NCBI GenBank assembly: GCA_965228195.1
Contig: OZ245797.1
Coordinates: 356,383 to 420,382 of the forward strand
Source of the DNA: Candidatus Cloacimonadales bacterium
GTDB lineage: Bacteria > Cloacimonadota > Cloacimonadia > G963667145
Direction: 5' to 3'
DNA length: 64,000 nt
Shown here: piece by piece, positions 1,835-32,880 of the stretch
How the letters are laid out: the number at the start of each line of letters is the position of its first letter
Numbering within the stretch: the first letter of the stretch is position 1
Position numbers and translations under genes: made by a program
Notes under the pieces: model-generated
Seen by the model: the letters and a program-made list of their open reading frames with translations, nothing else
Database searches by the model: none
What the model was told of the DNA's origin: nothing

Positions 1835-2149
1835 CCTAAAGGCGAGATATGTCACCTTTCTTTTTGTCTGAACAAAAATAATTGTGACCGAAAGAAAAAA
1901 TCAAATCAAAAGACAAAATCCTAACTTGCAAAACTTTCTCGCTGTGGCTGTAGTGCATCGTTTAGATTCTTTCCTAGCATCGCTAAAGACAGAGAAATAA
2001 ATTCCTCACACAGCCACAACTTCATTCGTTTAAACAAGTTCGACGGATTTAGTCTTGATTGATTACTAGCCCATTCCGCAGGCTTTGTCGCTCCCGCTCC
2101 AAAGCAATTGATAAGTTACATTGGATAATTGTTAATTAAAAATAAAAGT

Positions 2150-2445
2150 GAAAAAATTGACTACCACTTAGTGGGAAAAGATGGGGTGGAATTTTTCATT
2201 TTTCATTCTCAATTTTTAGTTTGGCTATGGCTCGTTAGAGGCAAAGCCTTTGGAGGGGACTACCTCCGCTTAAAGGGGTCTTCTTATTTTCTCGACATTC
2301 ATAAGCCAGTGACACTAATCACTTTCTAAGTAGAAATGCAAAGCCAAAAGCAGAAAATGACAAAATTATGGGTAATAAGCGGGAACAACCACACTTTTTT
2401 ACTCTGCTGGTGACACACCCCGTCGCTGGCGCTTTGAAGCAGAGC
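2150..2445. repeat. left arm of a large imperfect inverted repeat (partner at 8930..9200)
   Basis: The reverse complement of 2150-2445 aligns with 8930-9200. The inner about 110 bp (2340-2445 vs 8935-9050) is roughly 90% identical, e.g. ccgcttcaaagcgccagcgacgggg(c/t)gtgtcaccagcagagtaaaaaagtgtggttgttcccgcttattacccata. The outer about 190 bp is roughly 70% identical with conserved blocks (ggctttgca, tttagaaagtgatt, ccctttaagcggag, tgaaaaattccacc). Confidence 0.6.
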
Positions 2446-9780: not shown

Positions 9781-11049
9781 CTACCTTTTGCCGCGGCGAT
9801 AGCTGGGATTTTGAGCGCCTCTTTTCTTGTTGCGATTGGCAAAAAACTCCTGTTTCCGACGCTGCTTCTCTTTGTTATGCTCTCTTTTTTCCGCTGCGTT
9901 CATGGGTCTGTCGGTCTGAGGGAAAGGGTTTTCGCCGAAGACCTTAATCTTTTGCTTGATCAGCTTTTGGATATCTTCGATATAAGCGTTCTCTTCTGGC
10001 TCGCAGATGGAGATGGCGATGCCTTGCTCACCGGCTCTACCACAACGCCCGATTCTATGCACATAAGTTTCTGGCTCGTTGGGAATATCGTAGTTGATCA
10101 CATAACGAAGCTTATCGATATCTATTCCTCGGGCGGCGATGTCTGTGGCAACTAGCACCCTTAGCTGACCATCTTTGAAATCGCGCAAAGCTTTTTGACG
10201 CTGGTTTTGAGACCTATCGCCGTGGATAGCAGCGGCGTTAATTTTCTTCCTGTGCAGATTTTTCACGATGCGATTAGCGCCATGCTTGGTGCGAGAAAAA
10301 AGCAAAACCTGCTCTATTTTGTGATTCTCCAAGATGTGAAAAAGCAGCTCTTTTTTACTGCTTTTGTTGGTAGTATACAAATATTGTTGAATGGTATCCG
10401 CCGTCGAAGAGGTCGGATTGACAGACACTTTTTGGGGATTAACCAAAAGCGTTTGCGAAAACTTGACGATATTCGGGGGCATAGTTGCCGAGAAGAACAA
10501 GGTTTGCCGCTGCGTGGGCAATTTGGCGATTATCTTCTTGATATCGTGAATAAAGCCCATATCCAACATCCGATCGGCTTCGTCCAGCACGAAATATTTG
10601 ATCTCTGCAAGAGAGATGAACCCTTGATCCATCAAATCCAAAAGACGCCCTGGTGTTGCCACCAACACATCTACCCCTTGCCCCAAAGCTCTGGTTTGTG
10701 CTCCTTGAGGGACACCGCCGAAAACCACCGTATTTTTGATGCTGGTGTGTCTGCCGTAAGTGCTAAAGCTCTCACCGATCTGAATTGCCAGCTCCCTTGT
10801 CGGGGTTACCACCAAACAAGAGATCTTTCTCTTTCCCTTTGTCTTTTGCGGCTCACCCACCAGATGCTGAATAATCGGAATAGCGAAAGCCGCTGTCTTG
10901 CCCGTTCCCGTCTGCGCACTGCCTAGCACATCTTCCCTTTTTAAAATCAGGGGAATCGACTTGGCTTGAATAGAGGTAGGCTCGATATAATTTTCCTCAC
11001 TCAAAGCTTTGAGTATGGGAGGAATTAGTTTTAAATCTTTAAATTTCAT
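9781..11049 (-). CDS. DEAD-box ATP-dependent RNA helicase (RhlE/DeaD-like) with basic C-terminal tail
   Basis: Q-motif, motif I AQTGTGKT, PTRELA, the DEAD box (VLDEADRMLDMGF), SAT and HRIGRCGRAG are all present. Confidence 0.9.
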   Translation of the reverse strand: MKFKDLKLIPPILKALSEENYIEPTSIQAKSIPLILKREDVLGSAQTGTGKTAAFAIPIIQHLVGEPQKTKGKRKISCLVVTPTRELAIQIGESFSTYGRHTSIKNTVVFGGVPQGAQTRALGQGVDVLVATPGRLLDLMDQGFISLAEIKYFVLDEADRMLDMGFIHDIKKIIAKLPTQRQTLFFSATMPPNIVKFSQTLLVNPQKVSVNPTSSTADTIQQYLYTTNKSSKKELLFHILENHKIEQVLLFSRTKHGANRIVKNLHRKKINAAAIHGDRSQNQRQKALRDFKDGQLRVLVATDIAARGIDIDKLRYVINYDIPNEPETYVHRIGRCGRAGEQGIAISICEPEENAYIEDIQKLIKQKIKVFGENPFPQTDRPMNAAEKREHNKEKQRRKQEFFANRNKKRGAQNPSYRRGKR

Positions 11050-11461: not shown

Positions 11462-12847
11462 TTATTTTCCAGTAATTTTAATTAATTTTATAGAAATTTT
11501 TTGTCCCATTAAAGCTGCTAAAAATCCAAAGATATAAGCCCAAGGACCTAGAGTTGGTACAAATATTTTTAAAAGTAGATATACAACAAATCCACTAATA
11601 ATTCCTAATGAAGAAGCTGTATTAACAGGTTCTTTTATCATTATTGCAGAAAATATTGAAGGCAATAAAATCACCATTATTTTAAAACCTTCCGTAATAA
11701 GAGATACAATATTGGGTTGTACTATCGCTAATATTGTACTAATAAGTGAAATAATAAAGGAAACTAAAATAATAGAATTAGAATTATTATTTTTTAATAA
11801 ATTCCATGCTTTTAACGATTGTATTATTGCACTTGCAGAAGCATTTAGTACTGTATCCGCACTACTAAAAACAGCAAAGAGAAAAGCAACTATTGCAAAT
11901 CCAAAAATAATTTCATTCAATATTGTTCCATTACCTAATAAATATTTCTCAAATAAATGAAATAAGTCGTTAGAACCTTCCAATTTATTTGACAAACCAA
12001 TAAGGAGTAACATAAAGAAAACAAATAGAAGTATGAACCCAGATATTATATATGCTCGTTTTGCAACAATATCTGTTTTAGCCGTGAAGATTCTTTGCCA
12101 GTGGTCTAATCGAAGAAGTAAAGTAGGAAAAACAAACAAAGAAAGCCATATAAAATAACTAGTCAATGACTGATTAGCAAATGGATTCCAATATGACGTT
12201 TCGACTAAAGACAAATCAACAGGCGATTTGAACATTATTAAAAATATCGCTGTTAAGAGAATGACCAAAACAGCAATAAATTGTATAATATCACTTTTTA
12301 ATACTGAACGAAATCCACCAATTGAAACATATATATAAATAGTTATAGAAGAAATAACTATTAACCAATTTGAATCTATATTTATATGCAAAACTTTAAT
12401 TAATGAAGCCATAGCTACATATTGAGCTGCAAGAAATCCAATATAAATGACTCCATATGAAAAGATTATACCCCCCCATGTAACTTTATTATATTTTTTA
12501 GCAAGTAATAACGGAAAAGATATATTATGATTATCATCAATTAAACCTCTTTCTTGCATATTTCGACCTATCCTTCTAATATATTTTGCAAAAAAACCCA
12601 ATCCAATAAATGAAAGACAGTATACAATAGCTAATAAAATACCTATTATACCGGACGAAGAACCAAATTGAATTAGTCCAAATATTAATCCTCCACCTAT
12701 CGCAGTAGCTAACAATGTAGACATTAAAGGAATTAGTCCAACACTATTGGGCTTTCCTAAATGAAGGTTTAAATCAGTTGTCCTTTCTTTTAATGCTCTG
12801 ATAATTAAAAAAACAAGAGCAATAGCGATGATTATTTTATACGTCAT
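11462..12847 (-). CDS. sodium:solute symporter family (SSF) transporter
   Basis: 461 aa, about 12 TM segments. Contains the SSF-like motifs GGFRSVLKSDIIQ, RLDHWQRIFTAK and FSSADTVLNASASA. Coding is strongly AT-rich relative to its flanks. Confidence 0.65.
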   Translation of the reverse strand: MTYKIIIAIALVFLIIRALKERTTDLNLHLGKPNSVGLIPLMSTLLATAIGGGLIFGLIQFGSSSGIIGILLAIVYCLSFIGLGFFAKYIRRIGRNMQERGLIDDNHNISFPLLLAKKYNKVTWGGIIFSYGVIYIGFLAAQYVAMASLIKVLHINIDSNWLIVISSITIYIYVSIGGFRSVLKSDIIQFIAVLVILLTAIFLIMFKSPVDLSLVETSYWNPFANQSLTSYFIWLSLFVFPTLLLRLDHWQRIFTAKTDIVAKRAYIISGFILLFVFFMLLLIGLSNKLEGSNDLFHLFEKYLLGNGTILNEIIFGFAIVAFLFAVFSSADTVLNASASAIIQSLKAWNLLKNNNSNSIILVSFIISLISTILAIVQPNIVSLITEGFKIMVILLPSIFSAIMIKEPVNTASSLGIISGFVVYLLLKIFVPTLGPWAYIFGFLAALMGQKISIKLIKITGK

Positions 12848-13466
12848 AATATTTTATTTTTTCCTCAATTGATGCGTAAAAACCTGTTAATAAGAACCAA
12901 ACAGTAAAAATTGTTAAATGAATACATGAACCGATTTCAAGAGATAAAATACTGTTATTAACAAATTTGCATGTAATTGGCAATATTATGAATGAAATTA
13001 TTGATAACATTATAATAAAGTATAATAAAGCTCTTACTACTAGTTCCGAGCCACCTTTTTCAATTGCTTCTTCTACATATTCATCAAAAATAGACCAAAA
13101 TGATTTATTAAAGATATAGAAAAGAATTATAACAAATAAAGCTAGTATTGCTAGTAATATTCCAATACTAAAGAGACTTGAATGATTAACAGAAAGACTA
13201 CTAAATGAAAAAGCAATATTAATTATAACCCAAAGTATAAATGTGAAAATACTCGTATTATTTTTTATAAATTTTGGGACATATATGCTAAATAAACCAA
13301 AAATTAGGGAGAATAGTATACTTACAAAAGAAAGTGAAGTAATTAAATTAGAAGTATCCCCTGATGTAAGCAGAGTAACTGTTATAGCCATAGGTACTCC
13401 AAAAACAATTTCAATCATTGTTGATACAGAACTCGGCAAAGGGTTTTTAAGCATTTTTATTATCAT
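12837..13466 (-). CDS. hypothetical polytopic membrane protein
   Basis: 209 aa with several hydrophobic helices. Overlaps the downstream SSF gene by 11 nt. AT-rich. Confidence 0.4.
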   Translation of the reverse strand: MIIKMLKNPLPSSVSTMIEIVFGVPMAITVTLLTSGDTSNLITSLSFVSILFSLIFGLFSIYVPKFIKNNTSIFTFILWVIINIAFSFSSLSVNHSSLFSIGILLAILALFVIILFYIFNKSFWSIFDEYVEEAIEKGGSELVVRALLYFIIMLSIISFIILPITCKFVNNSILSLEIGSCIHLTIFTVWFLLTGFYASIEEKIKYYDV

Positions 13467-13954
13467 AGCTGTAAATCTTTAATTATATAGCCAATACCTT
13501 TTGAATAAAAGTATTTTTGGGAGTAAGCCTCAAATAAAACAATACATTTTTTGGATTGACTTCGGATTTTAAGAATCTTTGTTTCTATACAGATTTCATT
13601 GCACAACGGAATCGGTTTAATTATTTTAGTTTCAATTTTGGGAACAAGACAATAACCTTCTTCAACAAGAAATCTAAACCCTTTAATTGACCCCCAAAAT
13701 CCGTTAATCTGGTTTTTGCTAATTTCATTATCCAAGTGTACAATTAATGATTGCTCAATCCCTAAATTTATTAAATTCAAGCTAGAATATTGCATTCTAG
13801 TATTTGTAAAAGGGTAACTATCAAATGAGGCTTTAAACAAATAATTAGACTTGTCTATGACTTTTTCTATAGATTTTATTAATCTATATTCAGTTTTATA
13901 TGCATTTAAAGCATATCCGATTAATGTTCCTTTCATTAGAGTTTGTTTATTCAT
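13463..13954 (-). CDS. hypothetical protein
   Basis: 163-aa ORF, AT-rich, no recognisable motif. Overlaps the next gene by 4 nt (operonic). Confidence 0.4.
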   Translation of the reverse strand: MNKQTLMKGTLIGYALNAYKTEYRLIKSIEKVIDKSNYLFKASFDSYPFTNTRMQYSSLNLINLGIEQSLIVHLDNEISKNQINGFWGSIKGFRFLVEEGYCLVPKIETKIIKPIPLCNEICIETKILKIRSQSKKCIVLFEAYSQKYFYSKGIGYIIKDLQL

Positions 13955-14023
13955 ATGCAGTATCCTATTTCTATTGTGCTAAAGTGTTAATATATGTCAT
14001 ATGTCGTTTATTCCTTCTTTATA

Positions 14024-14361: not shown

Positions 14362-14625
14362 TTTTAATTTCTATTTTTTAATTTAACAGAGGAGTTTTTT
14401 TTGCCTAAATTCGCAGTAATTTGCCCTGAAGCTGCGTGATGCATCCTGCGATGCTAACAACAGCTGGGCAAGGACGAGGCAGGGCATTTTTAATTATTAA
14501 CTTTTTTTTAATTTAACAGAGGATTTTTTTTGCCTAAATTCGCAGTAATTTGCCCTGAAGCTGTATATTGTATACTGCGATAGGGGAAATTGCAAAAAAG
14601 TTGGGCAAAAAAAAATCCTCTGTTA
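14362..14625. repeat. tandem about 135-bp duplication downstream of the 5S rRNA, forming long hairpins that include the 5S 3' end
   Basis: ttttaatttaacagagga(g)ttttttttgcctaaattcgcagtaatttgccctgaagctg occurs at 14362-14425 and 14497-14560. aacagaggattttttttgcc (14507-) is complementary to ggcaaaaaaaaatcctctgtt (14604-14625), which overlaps the 5S 3' terminus. Confidence 0.6.
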
Positions 14626-14745
14626 TGGCGGCGTCCTACTCTCCCACACAGTCGCCCGTGCAGTACCATCGGCGCAGACAAGCTTAACTGCTGTGTTCGG
14701 AATGGGAACAGGTGTTGCCTTGTCGCTATAGCCACCATAACAAAG
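14618..14745 (-). rRNA. rrf: 5S ribosomal RNA
   Basis: Reverse complement reads TGTTATGGTGGCTATAGCGACAAGGCAACACCTGTTCCCATTCCGAACACAGCAGTTAAGCTTGTCTGCGCCGATGGTACTGCACGGGCGACTGTGTGGGAGAGTAGGACGCCGCCATAACA, with canonical helix I pairing. Confidence 0.9.
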
Positions 14746-14949: not shown

Positions 14950-17932
<2,983 letters not shown>

Positions 17933-18017
17933 TTATCTCACCACTTCTATAAAATTTCTATTCAAAAGATCGAAAAATATTTTTTGCCGCTGATTGCGAC
18001 TTTTTACTCTAAATAAA

Positions 18018-18093
18018 TGGTGGAGGATAACGGATTCGAACCGTTGACATCTTGCTTGCAAAGCAAGCGCTCTACCAGCTGAGCTAATCCCCC
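18018..18093 (-). tRNA. tRNA-Ala (anticodon TGC) in the 16S-23S spacer
   Basis: Reverse complement GGGGGATTAGCTCAGCTGGTAGAGCGCTTGCTTTGCAAGCAAGATGTCAACGGTTCGAATCCGTTATCCTCCACCA. Cloverleaf with G3:U70 and encoded CCA. Confidence 0.92.
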
Positions 18094-18154
18094 AGCAAAT
18101 TGCTGAAGCAATTTGCAATTAATAGTTTATAATTGACAGTTGATAATTAAGGAG

Positions 18155-18508
18155 CTAACGCACGTTTTTCACCTTTTTGACTATTGCAGTCAAAATTTTG
18201 ATTATCTCTATCAAATCGTTTTTAAGACTAAAAACCTCTTTTTCGCCCAAATATTCACCAGCCAACAAATCGAGCCAATACTCTGTTTCACCAGCCTCTT
18301 TGAGAGCTATCGACAATTTCGAGACAAAATCTCTTTTGCTTTGCGCATTTTGACTTTCCTTGATGTTCGCACCAATCGAAGTCCCGCTTCTCAAAATCTG
18401 CCTCGACAAAACATACTCTTTCTTATCAACATTCAAGCTTTTACACAGCTTCACTATCTTTTTAGCAAACACAAACGCTTTCTCGTAAACGATATTTTTT
18501 CTTATCAT
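18155..18508 (-). CDS. four-helix-bundle protein ('23S rRNA intervening-sequence protein' family, TIGR02436 / PF05635) embedded in the 16S-23S ITS
   Basis: 117 aa from the ATG (the ORF track's TTG start at 18556 is probably upstream read-through). The motifs ...RSGTSIGANIKESQNAQSKRDFVSKLSIALKEAGETEYWLDLL... are typical of this family. It is on the same strand as the rRNAs and has a GGAG RBS. Confidence 0.8.
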   Translation of the reverse strand: MIRKNIVYEKAFVFAKKIVKLCKSLNVDKKEYVLSRQILRSGTSIGANIKESQNAQSKRDFVSKLSIALKEAGETEYWLDLLAGEYLGEKEVFSLKNDLIEIIKILTAIVKKVKNVR

Positions 18509-18606
18509 CTTCCAAATCGCTCCAAGCCCCAAAATAATTGCCTTCACAATTATCAATTATGAATTGTCACTTGATAATTCATTTGACACCAAGAAATGGT
18601 GTCAAA

Positions 18607-18683
<77 letters not shown>

Positions 18684-18745
18684 ATCAGAATAAAAATTAG
18701 GTAGAGTAAACCCAAAGCCAATCGGCTTTTTCTTTTTTCCTTTAA

Positions 18746-20311
<1,566 letters not shown>

Positions 20312-31744: not shown

Positions 31745-32175
31745 AATTTAAAACCGACATTTCTAATTCCTTATATATCTGTGCTACTTTTTTAGTTACA
31801 CTAAATTACTCAAAGTCCAATCACAAAGTTACTCAATGTTTTTTCTTTCCACAAAAATTAAATTTTATACTTAGTGCATTAACTTCGTAACACTTGGTGC
31901 TACTCTTTTTTTTAGGTTCACAAAGTTACTCAAAGTTGGGACACTAAGTTACTCAATGTTTTTGTTAACATAAAATTAAGTATCAATACTTGGTGACACT
32001 TTGTGCTACTTCTTTTCCAGGTTCACAAAGTTACCCAAAGTCAGAACACAAAGTCACACAATGTTTTTTCTTATCATAAAAATTAAATTTCATACTTCGT
32101 GCTACTTAGTGCATTAACTTCGTGGTACTTCGTGCTACTTTTTCTTTTAGTTACACTAAGTTACTCAAAGTCCAA
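31745..32175. repeat. tandem array (about 3.5 units) of an about 120-bp repeat, left block
   Basis: Each unit is roughly tt(a/g)gtt(a/c)ca(c/a)(t/a)aagttactcaaagtNNNNNcac(t/a)aagttactcaatgtttttNtt(aaca)taaaattaagtatcaatacttggtgacactttgtgctac(t). Each unit contains an internal direct half-site pair CAC(A/T)AAGTTACTCAA(A/T)GT. Confidence 0.7.
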
Positions 32176-32547
32176 TCACAAAACTAAACGCTTTATTCCA
32201 TCTCTTAAAGATTTTTTGTAAAAATTTAACAAAAGTCCAAGTTTGCAATGAACAAATCTCATATAAGTCAGTCCTTGTGCAATATGCTCAACACTAAAAT
32301 CATCTACAACTTTAAGTTCAATAACTACTTTTTTATTTACTAAAATATCTACTCTATATCCGCAATCAAACTTTATACCTTCATAAAAAACAGGGATTTC
32401 AACCTCTTCTTCTGCAATCAATCCTGATCTATTTAGCTCATAAGCCAGCGCTCCTCTATAAACTTTTTCAAGTAAACCAGAGCCCAGTTTTGTATGTACC
32501 TTAAAAGCACAATCTAAAATAATTTTACTAATTTCGTTTTCGTTCAT
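32176..32547 (-). CDS. GxxExxY protein (TIGR04256; PD-(D/E)XK nuclease-like small protein)
   Basis: 123 aa. N-terminal KIILDCAFKVHTKLGSGLLEKVYRGALAYEL contains the eponymous G-x-x-E-x-x-Y motif. Confidence 0.75.
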   Translation of the reverse strand: MNENEISKIILDCAFKVHTKLGSGLLEKVYRGALAYELNRSGLIAEEEVEIPVFYEGIKFDCGYRVDILVNKKVVIELKVVDDFSVEHIAQGLTYMRFVHCKLGLLLNFYKKSLRDGIKRLVL

Positions 32548-32559
32548 AACTTATTACTA

Positions 32560-32880
32560 CTTGAGTATATACTTTTTTTTCAGTTACACTAAGTTACGCA
32601 AAGTTGGAACACTGAGTTACTCAATGTTTTTTTTAACATAAAATTAAGTATCAATACTTGGTGACACTTTGTGCATTAACTTAGTGCTACTTTGTGCTAC
32701 TTTATTTTTAGGTTCACTAAGTTACTCAAAGTTGAAAATCTAAGGCACACAATGTTTTTTCTTATTATAAAAGTTAAGTATAAATACTTAGTGTTACTTT
32801 GTGCATTAACTTGGTGGCACTTTGTGGTACTCCTTAGTTACACAATTTTCAATTTTAAATTATCAACTATCAATTTCCCT
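32560..32880. repeat. tandem array (about 2.5 units) of the same about 120-bp repeat, right block
   Basis: Units at about 32578-32700 and 32700-32835, plus a partial unit running into the valS stop. Confidence 0.7.

Follow-up and report, generated by a model that had tools for sequence, protein, structure and literature searches.

How does a gene for a protein named after the intervening sequences (IVSs) of 23S rRNA come to lie between two tRNA genes, and what kind of element is it? The question is raised by a 64,000-nt stretch of the genome of a Candidatus Cloacimonadales bacterium (assembly GCA_965228195.1, contig OZ245797.1, positions 356,383 to 420,382), here referred to as the window. 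The window features one rRNA (rrn) operon, and the internal transcribed spacer (ITS) of this operon carries, between tRNA-Ile and tRNA-Ala, an open reading frame (ORF) for an intervening-sequence protein (IVP). We conclude, with a probability of roughly 60%, that the element is a complete IVP cassette of the IVS type in a new location, the tRNA-Ile/tRNA-Ala spacer, and that it would be transcribed in the pre-rRNA, closed by a stem and processed out.

When compared with protein family profiles, the predicted product matched PF05635 (23S_rRNA_IVP) with 99.4 bits (cut-off 33.8) over profile positions 1-105 of 106 and TIGR02436 (four helix bundle protein) with 113.1 bits (cut-off 24) over positions 1-109 of 109. 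The nearest solved structure is PDB 2RLD (E 9e-33, residues 3-115), an entry with five chains. By these profile matches the ORF is a member of the PF05635/TIGR02436 four-helix-bundle family, which confirms an earlier reading of the window made from the sequence alone (the sequence-only reading). More than 5,500 clusters were matched by the IVP protein query alone. No match to the protein was found among the PADLOC models for anti-phage defence and the PHROG models for phage proteins.

The same site was compared in the window and three relatives, two of which (L004 and L005) have circular genomes of ~1.55 Mb, the third being L086. Their 16S rRNA identities to the window are 96.1% (L004), 96.0% (L005) and 97.1% (L086). 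In L004 and L005, IVP orthologues with 75% and 73% identity are also located between tRNA-Ile and tRNA-Ala. In L086, the rrn operon is found at the syntenic place and the repeat arrays on both sides of the gene are kept; a deletion has removed ~260 nt of the ORF, of which the first ~26 codons and the last few codons persist as a 42-aa remnant. This loss of most of the ORF indicates that the cassette is dispensable. The sequence-only reading would be contradicted by related ITSs that all contained the ORF without a repeat structure, and only half of this holds. Each ITS examined carries either the ORF or its deletion remnant and always the repeat structure, and an insert-less ITS or empty site was found in none of the four clade genomes. 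A fifth clade genome, L088 (ERZ25042269 ctg13201c), does not have its rrn operon at the syntenic site. The exact protein was also encountered on the short low-coverage contigs L001-L003 (ENA ERZ25074352), which show palindromic fold-backs and a mirror-image gene order. These contigs are probably long-read artefacts and were dropped as independent evidence, being fold-back chimeras, one of which yields a truncated 78-aa IVP call.

The host lineage is deep-branching and uncultured, with circular clade genomes of ~1.54-1.59 Mb, the genomes considered besides the window being L004, L005, L086, L088 and L089. The MutS2 protein of the lineage is 34% identical to its best match outside the small clade, which indicates that the lineage is deep.

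Comparison of the orthologues yielded ratios of nonsynonymous to synonymous divergence (dN/dS) of 0.09 for the window and L004 (dS 1.7) and of 0.07 for L004 and L005, while synonymous sites are saturated between the window and L005. Differences between the orthologues number 41-55 at third codon positions, compared to 8-24 at first or second positions. Based on the low dN/dS and the excess at third positions, the IVP gene appears to be translated and under purifying selection. As the cassette occupies the same site in the relatives and dS is saturated, it is probably ancient, predates the split of these genomes, and would have entered the spacer in an ancestor of the genus-level clade, with vertical inheritance since then. 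We regard this part of the conclusion, the identity of the element as an IVS-type cassette and its old, vertically inherited history, as highly probable.

The sequence-only reading had described 18-bp direct repeats flanking the gene and had considered them consistent with a cassette-like insertion. Both 18-mers exist (18130-18147 and 18563-18580) and are identical at 16/18 positions, a match that was not equalled in any of 300 shuffles (0/300), but they are fragments of opposed arrays with a period of 7 nt. Self-identity of both flanks is 0.5-0.7 at lags 7 and 14, compared to 0.15-0.45 at other lags, and Tandem Repeats Finder reported a period of 7 at 18547-18569. On the RNA-sense strand, the 5' flank reads AATTATC AAGTGAC AATTCAT AATTGAT AATTGTG. 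The 3' flank reads AATTATC AACTGTC AATTATA AACTATT AATTGCA on the same strand and corresponds to an (AATTGAT)n-type array in reverse complement. The first 18-mer falls inside the downstream array, which is able to pair with the upstream array. The second is contained in the outer part of the 5' array (18562-18582), which is flipped, its units being read on the plus strand. The direct repeat thus results from the flip of the outermost one or two units of the 5' array, which is seen in the window genome only. In L086, L004 and L005, the motif copies are forward upstream of the ORF and reversed downstream of it. The best direct 18-nt match between the flanks is at chance level in these three genomes (13-14/18), whereas the best inverted match (15-17/18) is significant in 4/4 genomes, indicating that the conserved feature is the inverted arrangement. 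The arrays of the clade consist of about 5 units with the consensus A-A/G-T-T/G-G-A-N. What remains of the earlier claim is a module complete in itself, made up of an array, the ORF and the inverted array; the direct repeats are no mark of insertion, and the element is ancient. A target-site duplication was considered for them and ruled out, since they occur in the window alone and fall within the arrays.

Arrays of this type are not restricted to the clade. The homologue sample comprised 160 loci with the closest homologues (~50-63% identical), of which 80 came from species-representative genomes and another 80 were metagenomic, and array statistics refer to 155 loci with enough flank (153 of the sample plus L004 and L005). 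When the 90 nt preceding the ORF were compared with the 90 nt that follow it, complementarity gave a median z of -3.5, with 84 loci below -3; the control medians were -0.20 for mismatched partners and -0.07 for positions displaced by 1.5 kb. Upstream of the ORF, the unit A[AG]T[TG]GA[ACT] was found 205 times in forward and 35 times in reversed orientation, and downstream 200 times reversed and 53 times forward, compared to ~30 per orientation in control regions (133 regions of 180 nt). Runs of at least three in-phase units are present upstream in 87 loci and downstream in 92; 68 loci have them on both sides and 111 on one side or both. The mode is four units on each side (50 loci upstream, 60 downstream). 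Control runs did not exceed two units in 134/135 regions. At the median, the upstream array ends 15 nt before the start codon and the downstream array begins 16 nt after the stop codon. Within the unit A-R-T-K-G-A-N, invariance reaches 92% or more at positions 1, 3 and 6, and position 5 is G in 76%; position 2 is either A or G, position 4 either T or G, and position 7 is free. All ten loci that were inspected individually (10/10) have like heptamer arrays, including loci of Oscillospiraceae, Ruminococcus, Verrucomicrobia and Chryseobacterium and two 23S IVSs. Across phyla, about half to three-quarters of the relatives that were sampled have the inverted heptamer architecture, and about a quarter to half of the loci are without recognisable arrays by the criteria used.

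Where both arrays have four or more units (57 loci), the arms of the same cassette match at 19.0/21 positions, compared to 15.7/21 for arms of different cassettes (p = 1e-20), and the excess within cassettes persists at the variable positions of the heptamer. The shared motif and the matching of arms within a cassette indicate two constraints acting together, at the RNA or the DNA level. Pairing was also observed in predicted folds. In minimum free energy (MFE) folds of the whole spacer of L004, L005 and L086, the ORF is closed by a long-range stem of 18-23 pairs with a pairing probability of ~0.9. With trimmed flanks, duplexes of -23 to -32 kcal/mol were obtained in 4/4 genomes, values that were matched by 0-6/500 composition-matched shuffles.

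The genomic settings of the related cassettes vary. An ITS location was found in 0/160 homologous loci (0/80 from species-representative genomes, 0/80 from metagenomes), which is only suggestive of rarity, as metagenome-assembled genomes from short reads under-sample rrn operons. Two of the 160 loci are in rrn operons (L136 and L153, both metagenomic); both are inside the 23S rRNA gene, just 3' of the position equivalent to helix 45 in the 23S rRNA of the window, and their IVS stems are formed by the same heptamer arrays. In the operon of L153, which is unrelated to the window and the 23S rRNA gene of which bears the IVP IVS, the Ile-Ala spacer (662-1100) is likewise long (~440 nt); it is GC-rich and without a recognisable ORF. 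In nine loci from Clostridia (L019, L023, L026, L040, L081, L083, L090, L094, L095), the cassette is located 36-173 nt upstream of a co-oriented tRNA-Leu gene, within 42 nt of it in 8/9. On visual inspection, the forward array is preceded by a TTGACA-type sigma-70-like promoter in 7 or 8 of the 9, so that the cassette occupies the tRNA-Leu leader. Two of these loci, L019 and L095, have a 29-39-nt copy of the 5' half of tRNA-Leu duplicated upstream of the cassette, a hint of past insertion into or beside the tRNA gene. The three nearest homologues outside the clade (58-66% identical) were found between co-oriented genes of ordinary protein operons.

In the window, the operon is encoded on the minus strand in the order 16S, tRNA-Ile, tRNA-Ala, 23S, 5S, and the spacer between the tRNA genes (513 nt) contains one sense-strand ORF only, which is co-oriented with the rRNA genes as the sequence-only reading had stated (Table 1). 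Starting from an upstream TTG, this ORF would encode 133 aa. The genes for 16S and 23S rRNA each cover their Rfam models from end to end and contain no large insert. At E <= 1, Rfam models detected only the two tRNAs and a chance-level mir-2242 match (18.2 bits compared to a gathering threshold of 70, E 0.48) in the region 18000-18760, and no group I/II intron structure was found there around the ORF. On the sense strand, a scan of the interval from tRNA-Ile to tRNA-Ala revealed no terminator-like site, for which reason the IVP gene should be part of the pre-rRNA, in agreement with the earlier proposal. The hairpin 5' of tRNA-Ala, which is kept in 4/4 ITSs of the clade, lacks a U-tract and is thus not an intrinsic terminator. 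The hairpin 3' of tRNA-Ile was observed in the window genome only; L086 has a different hairpin at this place, and L004 and L005 have none.

Table 1 Features of the rrn operon and its Ile-Ala spacer, in order of transcription (window coordinates)
Feature	Position	Strand	Remarks
16S rRNA	20311..18745	-	First gene of the operon; Rfam RF00177, 1520.7 bits, full length
tRNA-Ile(GAU)	18683..18607	-	5' boundary of the spacer; ARAGORN and Rfam
Perfect 12-bp hairpin	18580..18608	-	Directly 3' of tRNA-Ile; inverted-repeat scan and clade ITS alignment
Upstream (5') heptamer array	18545..18582	-	Sense units AAGTGAC AATTCAT AATTGAT AATTGTG in phase at 18572..18545
IVP (four-helix-bundle) gene	18508..18155	-	117 aa from ATG at 18508; stop TAG at 18157..18155
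Downstream heptamer array, inverted	18117..18151	+	Five units AATTAAT AGTTTAT AATTGAC AGTTGAT AATTAAG
10-bp hairpin GCAAAUUGCU-UC-AGCAAUUUGC	18095..18116	-	Immediately 5' of tRNA-Ala; inverted-repeat scan, ITS alignment and folds
tRNA-Ala(UGC)	18093..18018	-	3' boundary of the spacer; ARAGORN and Rfam
23S rRNA	17917..14951	-	2967 nt; without the extra inserts found in the 23S rRNA genes of L004 and L005
5S rRNA	14739..14623	-	End of the operon

Taken together, these results are best accommodated by a module that consists of a heptamer array of about five units, the ORF for a 117-aa four-helix-bundle protein related to Avd, the accessory variability determinant of diversity-generating retroelements (DGRs), and an inverted array. 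It would be the same type of module as the protein-coding 23S IVSs, lodged in the Ile-Ala spacer instead of an rRNA helix. Since the cassette is without a convincing promoter or terminator of its own, it would be transcribed from the rrn promoters within the pre-rRNA. The two arrays would pair to form an AU-rich stem, closing the ORF into a stem-loop that, by analogy with 23S IVSs, may be cut out by RNase III. In the IVP-bearing IVS of Coxiella, which has a 28-bp terminal stem, this enzyme cleaves within the stem in vitro (PMC4990558). Release could alternatively or additionally be achieved by RNase P at tRNA-Ala together with 3'-end processing of tRNA-Ile. The freed RNA would then serve as mRNA and be translated. 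For this route, processing by RNase III and expression from the pre-rRNA, we consider the odds to be about even.

Several observations weigh against this reading. The closing stem is missing from the MFE fold of the window itself, in which the pairing probability of the two arrays is ~0.1, because local pairing engages part of the 5' array, which is flipped. An RNase III gene is absent from the window. The Shine-Dalgarno-like tract of the IVP gene, a GGAAG purine tract immediately 5' of the ATG, is weak. The IVS protein of Coxiella is apparently not made in vivo (PMC4990558). Mismatches in 120 inverted repeats comprise 81 of the G-U type and 110 of the A-C type, with transversions dominating; given this lack of a G-U bias on the sense strand, selection for a sense-RNA helix is not demonstrated. 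Finally, the heptamer sequence itself is conserved across phyla beyond mere complementarity, for which a plain RNase III stem is an insufficient explanation.

This conservation suggests an additional sequence-specific reader, for which the IVP protein is the most economical, albeit tentative, candidate. The arrays would accordingly be putative sequence-specific sites on RNA or DNA, likeliest for the IVP protein itself, which might autoregulate, protect or move the cassette, with the stem being secondary. Such a role is consistent with the occurrence of A-R-T-K-G-A-N across Bacteroidota, Clostridia, Verrucomicrobia and others, with the stereotyped array length (a mode of four units, and five in the clade of the window) and with a mismatch spectrum unlike that of an RNA helix. 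It is also in line with the five chains of 2RLD, with the homology of the IVP protein to a pentameric Avd-like bundle and with the homology of PF05635 to Avd, a nucleic-acid-associated DGR protein (PMC10053308). However, the arms within a cassette match beyond the shared motif, which argues for pairing or concerted evolution and not only for independent sites, recognisable arrays are missing from a quarter to half of the loci, and like heptamers (TAACTGA) precede many unrelated genes in some genomes (PMC4679880). We therefore consider binding of the arrays possible rather than probable. It overlaps with the stem-closed cassette and does not exclude it, and an IVP protein that reads the arrays is compatible with the stem model. 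In a broader view, which we regard as conjectural, PF05635 genes are the cargo of a widespread stereotyped module and the arrays are predicted recognition sites, on RNA or DNA, of an oligomeric Avd-like protein. It is equally a matter of conjecture that a complex of protein and arrays controls processing, expression or movement of the cassette, and that 23S IVSs, tRNA-Leu leader insertions and ITS insertions are one element.

Three further alternatives were considered. The gene could be expressed as an independent mRNA from an own promoter made by the upstream array, its ITS position being incidental. AATTGAC-type units create TTGACA and AATTGAT-type units create GATAAT, with a spacing of 17 nt when three units apart, and a sense-strand site TTATCA-17-GATAAT (9/12) is indeed found at 18577..18549. 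Nevertheless, promoter-like sites in the spacer region are no commoner than in shuffles (7 compared to 4.3 +/- 2.0, the best reaching only 9/12 and lying inside the arrays) as judged by a sigma-70-like consensus, which may not be the promoter type of the host lineage. The downstream array would equally give an antisense promoter, and in the 7 or 8 of 9 tRNA-Leu loci mentioned above the promoter-like site is separate from the array, which lies in the transcribed leader. An own promoter is thus unlikely in our view. For the IVS ORF of Coxiella (S23p), which is reported to be under reductive evolution (PMC4990558), a decaying selfish relic lacking any protein function has been proposed, and such a relic would here agree with the loss of most of the ORF from the retained operon of L086. 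It is rendered very unlikely by dN/dS values of 0.07-0.09 in three lineages, with synonymous divergence being saturated, and by an intact, full-length ORF that matches across the whole profile. A recent insertion of a mobile element with an 18-bp target-site duplication is hardly tenable: the 16/18 direct repeat that flanks the ORF, unmatched in shuffles, is absent from L086, L004 and L005 and internal to the arrays instead of outside them, genomes with 96-97% 16S rRNA identity and saturated dS share the site, and no transposase or integrase ORF was found within the Ile-Ala spacer, where an enzyme encoded elsewhere might nevertheless act in trans.

Further inserts and repeats were observed in the relatives and elsewhere in the window. 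The 23S rRNA genes of L004 (10030-10345) and L005 (~9941-10257) carry an insert of ~290 nt at the position equivalent to helix 45, which encodes an 84-aa GIY-YIG protein and is not present in the 23S rRNA gene of the window. A perfect 16-bp inverted repeat (AAGCACCTATTTTTAA / TTAAAAATAGGTGCTT) closes this insert in L004, where the GIY-YIG ORF is preceded by a strong AAGGAG, in contrast to the weak tract of the IVP ORF in the window. The 23S rRNA gene of L004 features further segments of ~60-65 nt near positions 150-175 and 617-635 of the window 23S. That of L005 differs near 617-635 as well; alignment of its first ~617 nt is poor, and no discrete insert was resolved near 150-175.

Two additional sites in the window contain heptamer arrays. 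A solo array of five units (AATTGAT AGTTGAT AATTTAA AATTGAA AATTGTG) is located at 32841-32875 on the minus strand, directly after the valS stop codon. An inverted partner was not detected and an IVP gene is absent; the array may be what is left of a cassette that was lost. Downstream of valS, each relative has a different region. Convergent arrays of three units each, at 2120-2140 (+) and 2194-2214 (-), are intergenic and 54 nt apart with no ORF between them. They may represent an ORF-less mini-cassette, and the fold of this pair (2095-2235) was not significant (z = -1.27). A gene for a GxxExxY protein (TIGR04256, E 5e-39) is found just downstream of valS at 32176-32547 (-). It is flanked on both sides by about five copies of a direct repeat of ~90-130 nt (31763-32152 and 32574-32844) and looks like another small repeat-flanked cassette. 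Just downstream of the 5S rRNA gene are two copies of a 79-nt direct repeat (14374-14452 and 14503-14581, 80% identical), followed by a low-GC island at 12001-14000 (27.7% GC) containing three ORFs, for which there is either no family match or a weak one to a symporter family. For a 461-aa ORF neighbouring the rrn operon, no homologue was found in the other clade genomes, L088 included.

The family of the 23S rRNA IVS protein is very large and has been an orphan in function since its discovery. In the clade studied here, one of its genes appears to have been kept under strong purifying selection over a long time inside a pre-rRNA spacer, suggesting that such a gene is not merely junk removed by RNase III. 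The paired heptamer arrays provide a testable handle on the function of the family, namely protein binding and cutting by RNase III, and their architecture is a simple annotation signature for such cassettes, including ORF-less remnants. It also offers one possible explanation of why IVP genes are encountered in rRNA helices as well as in rRNA spacers and tRNA leaders. If true, 23S IVSs, tRNA-Leu leader insertions and the ITS insertion would be the same element in stable-RNA transcripts that tolerate cassettes.

Compared to an ordinary bacterial ITS, the operon of the window has the same gene order (16S, tRNA-Ile(GAU), tRNA-Ala(UGC), 23S, 5S), but its Ile-Ala spacer differs in its length of 513 nt and in the presence of a protein gene that appears to be under selection. 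To our knowledge, ordinary Ile-Ala spacers are short and non-coding.

Insertions encoding 23S_rRNA_IVP proteins in 16S and 23S rRNA genes have been published for the candidate phyla radiation (CPR), where IVP ORFs occur at several non-classical rrn sites without an association with group I/II introns (PMC11270868). These sit inside the coding sequence of the 16S or 23S rRNA, an ITS location is not reported in that study, and the host of the window belongs to a different lineage, which is deep-branching (~1.56 Mb). In open-access texts we found no published IVP gene in an ITS and no link between heptamer arrays and PF05635, so that both the location and the family-wide architecture are apparently undescribed in this literature. 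The window protein resembles Avd in being a homologous small four-helix-bundle protein, and PF05635 is the commonest Pfam family in DGR neighbourhoods (PMC10053308). Unlike the gene for Avd in a DGR, the IVP gene is without an adjoining reverse transcriptase, template or variable repeat, its neighbours being only tRNA and rRNA genes.

The intergenic TAACTGA heptamers of Beggiatoaceae, Cyanobacteria and Bacteroidetes (PMC4679880) are likewise tandem 7-nt units, in 2-6 copies and with a patchy distribution across phyla, and are mostly located a few nucleotides upstream of start codons. They are direct repeats upstream of many different genes, whereas the arrays of the cassette are paired and inverted; IVP or four-helix-bundle genes and paired inverted arrays are not mentioned in PMC4679880. 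One IVP locus of the sample (L029) uses AACTGAT units, a cyclic permutation of TAACTGA.

The cassette also resembles the 23S IVSs of Leptospira and Coxiella burnetii (helix 45; PMC4990558), with which it shares PF05635, terminal inverted repeats (a stem of ~28 bp or longer in the IVSs), the embedding in an rrn operon and the co-orientation with it. As in these IVSs, the termini are complementary and able to form a long stem, and the element is sporadic and dispensable. The ORF in Coxiella is described as decaying (PMC4990558), whereas that of the window appears to be under strong purifying selection. The cassette also differs from 23S IVSs in its position between two tRNAs. As it lies outside a mature rRNA helix, its excision would not be needed for ribosome function and would cause no fragmentation of the rRNA.

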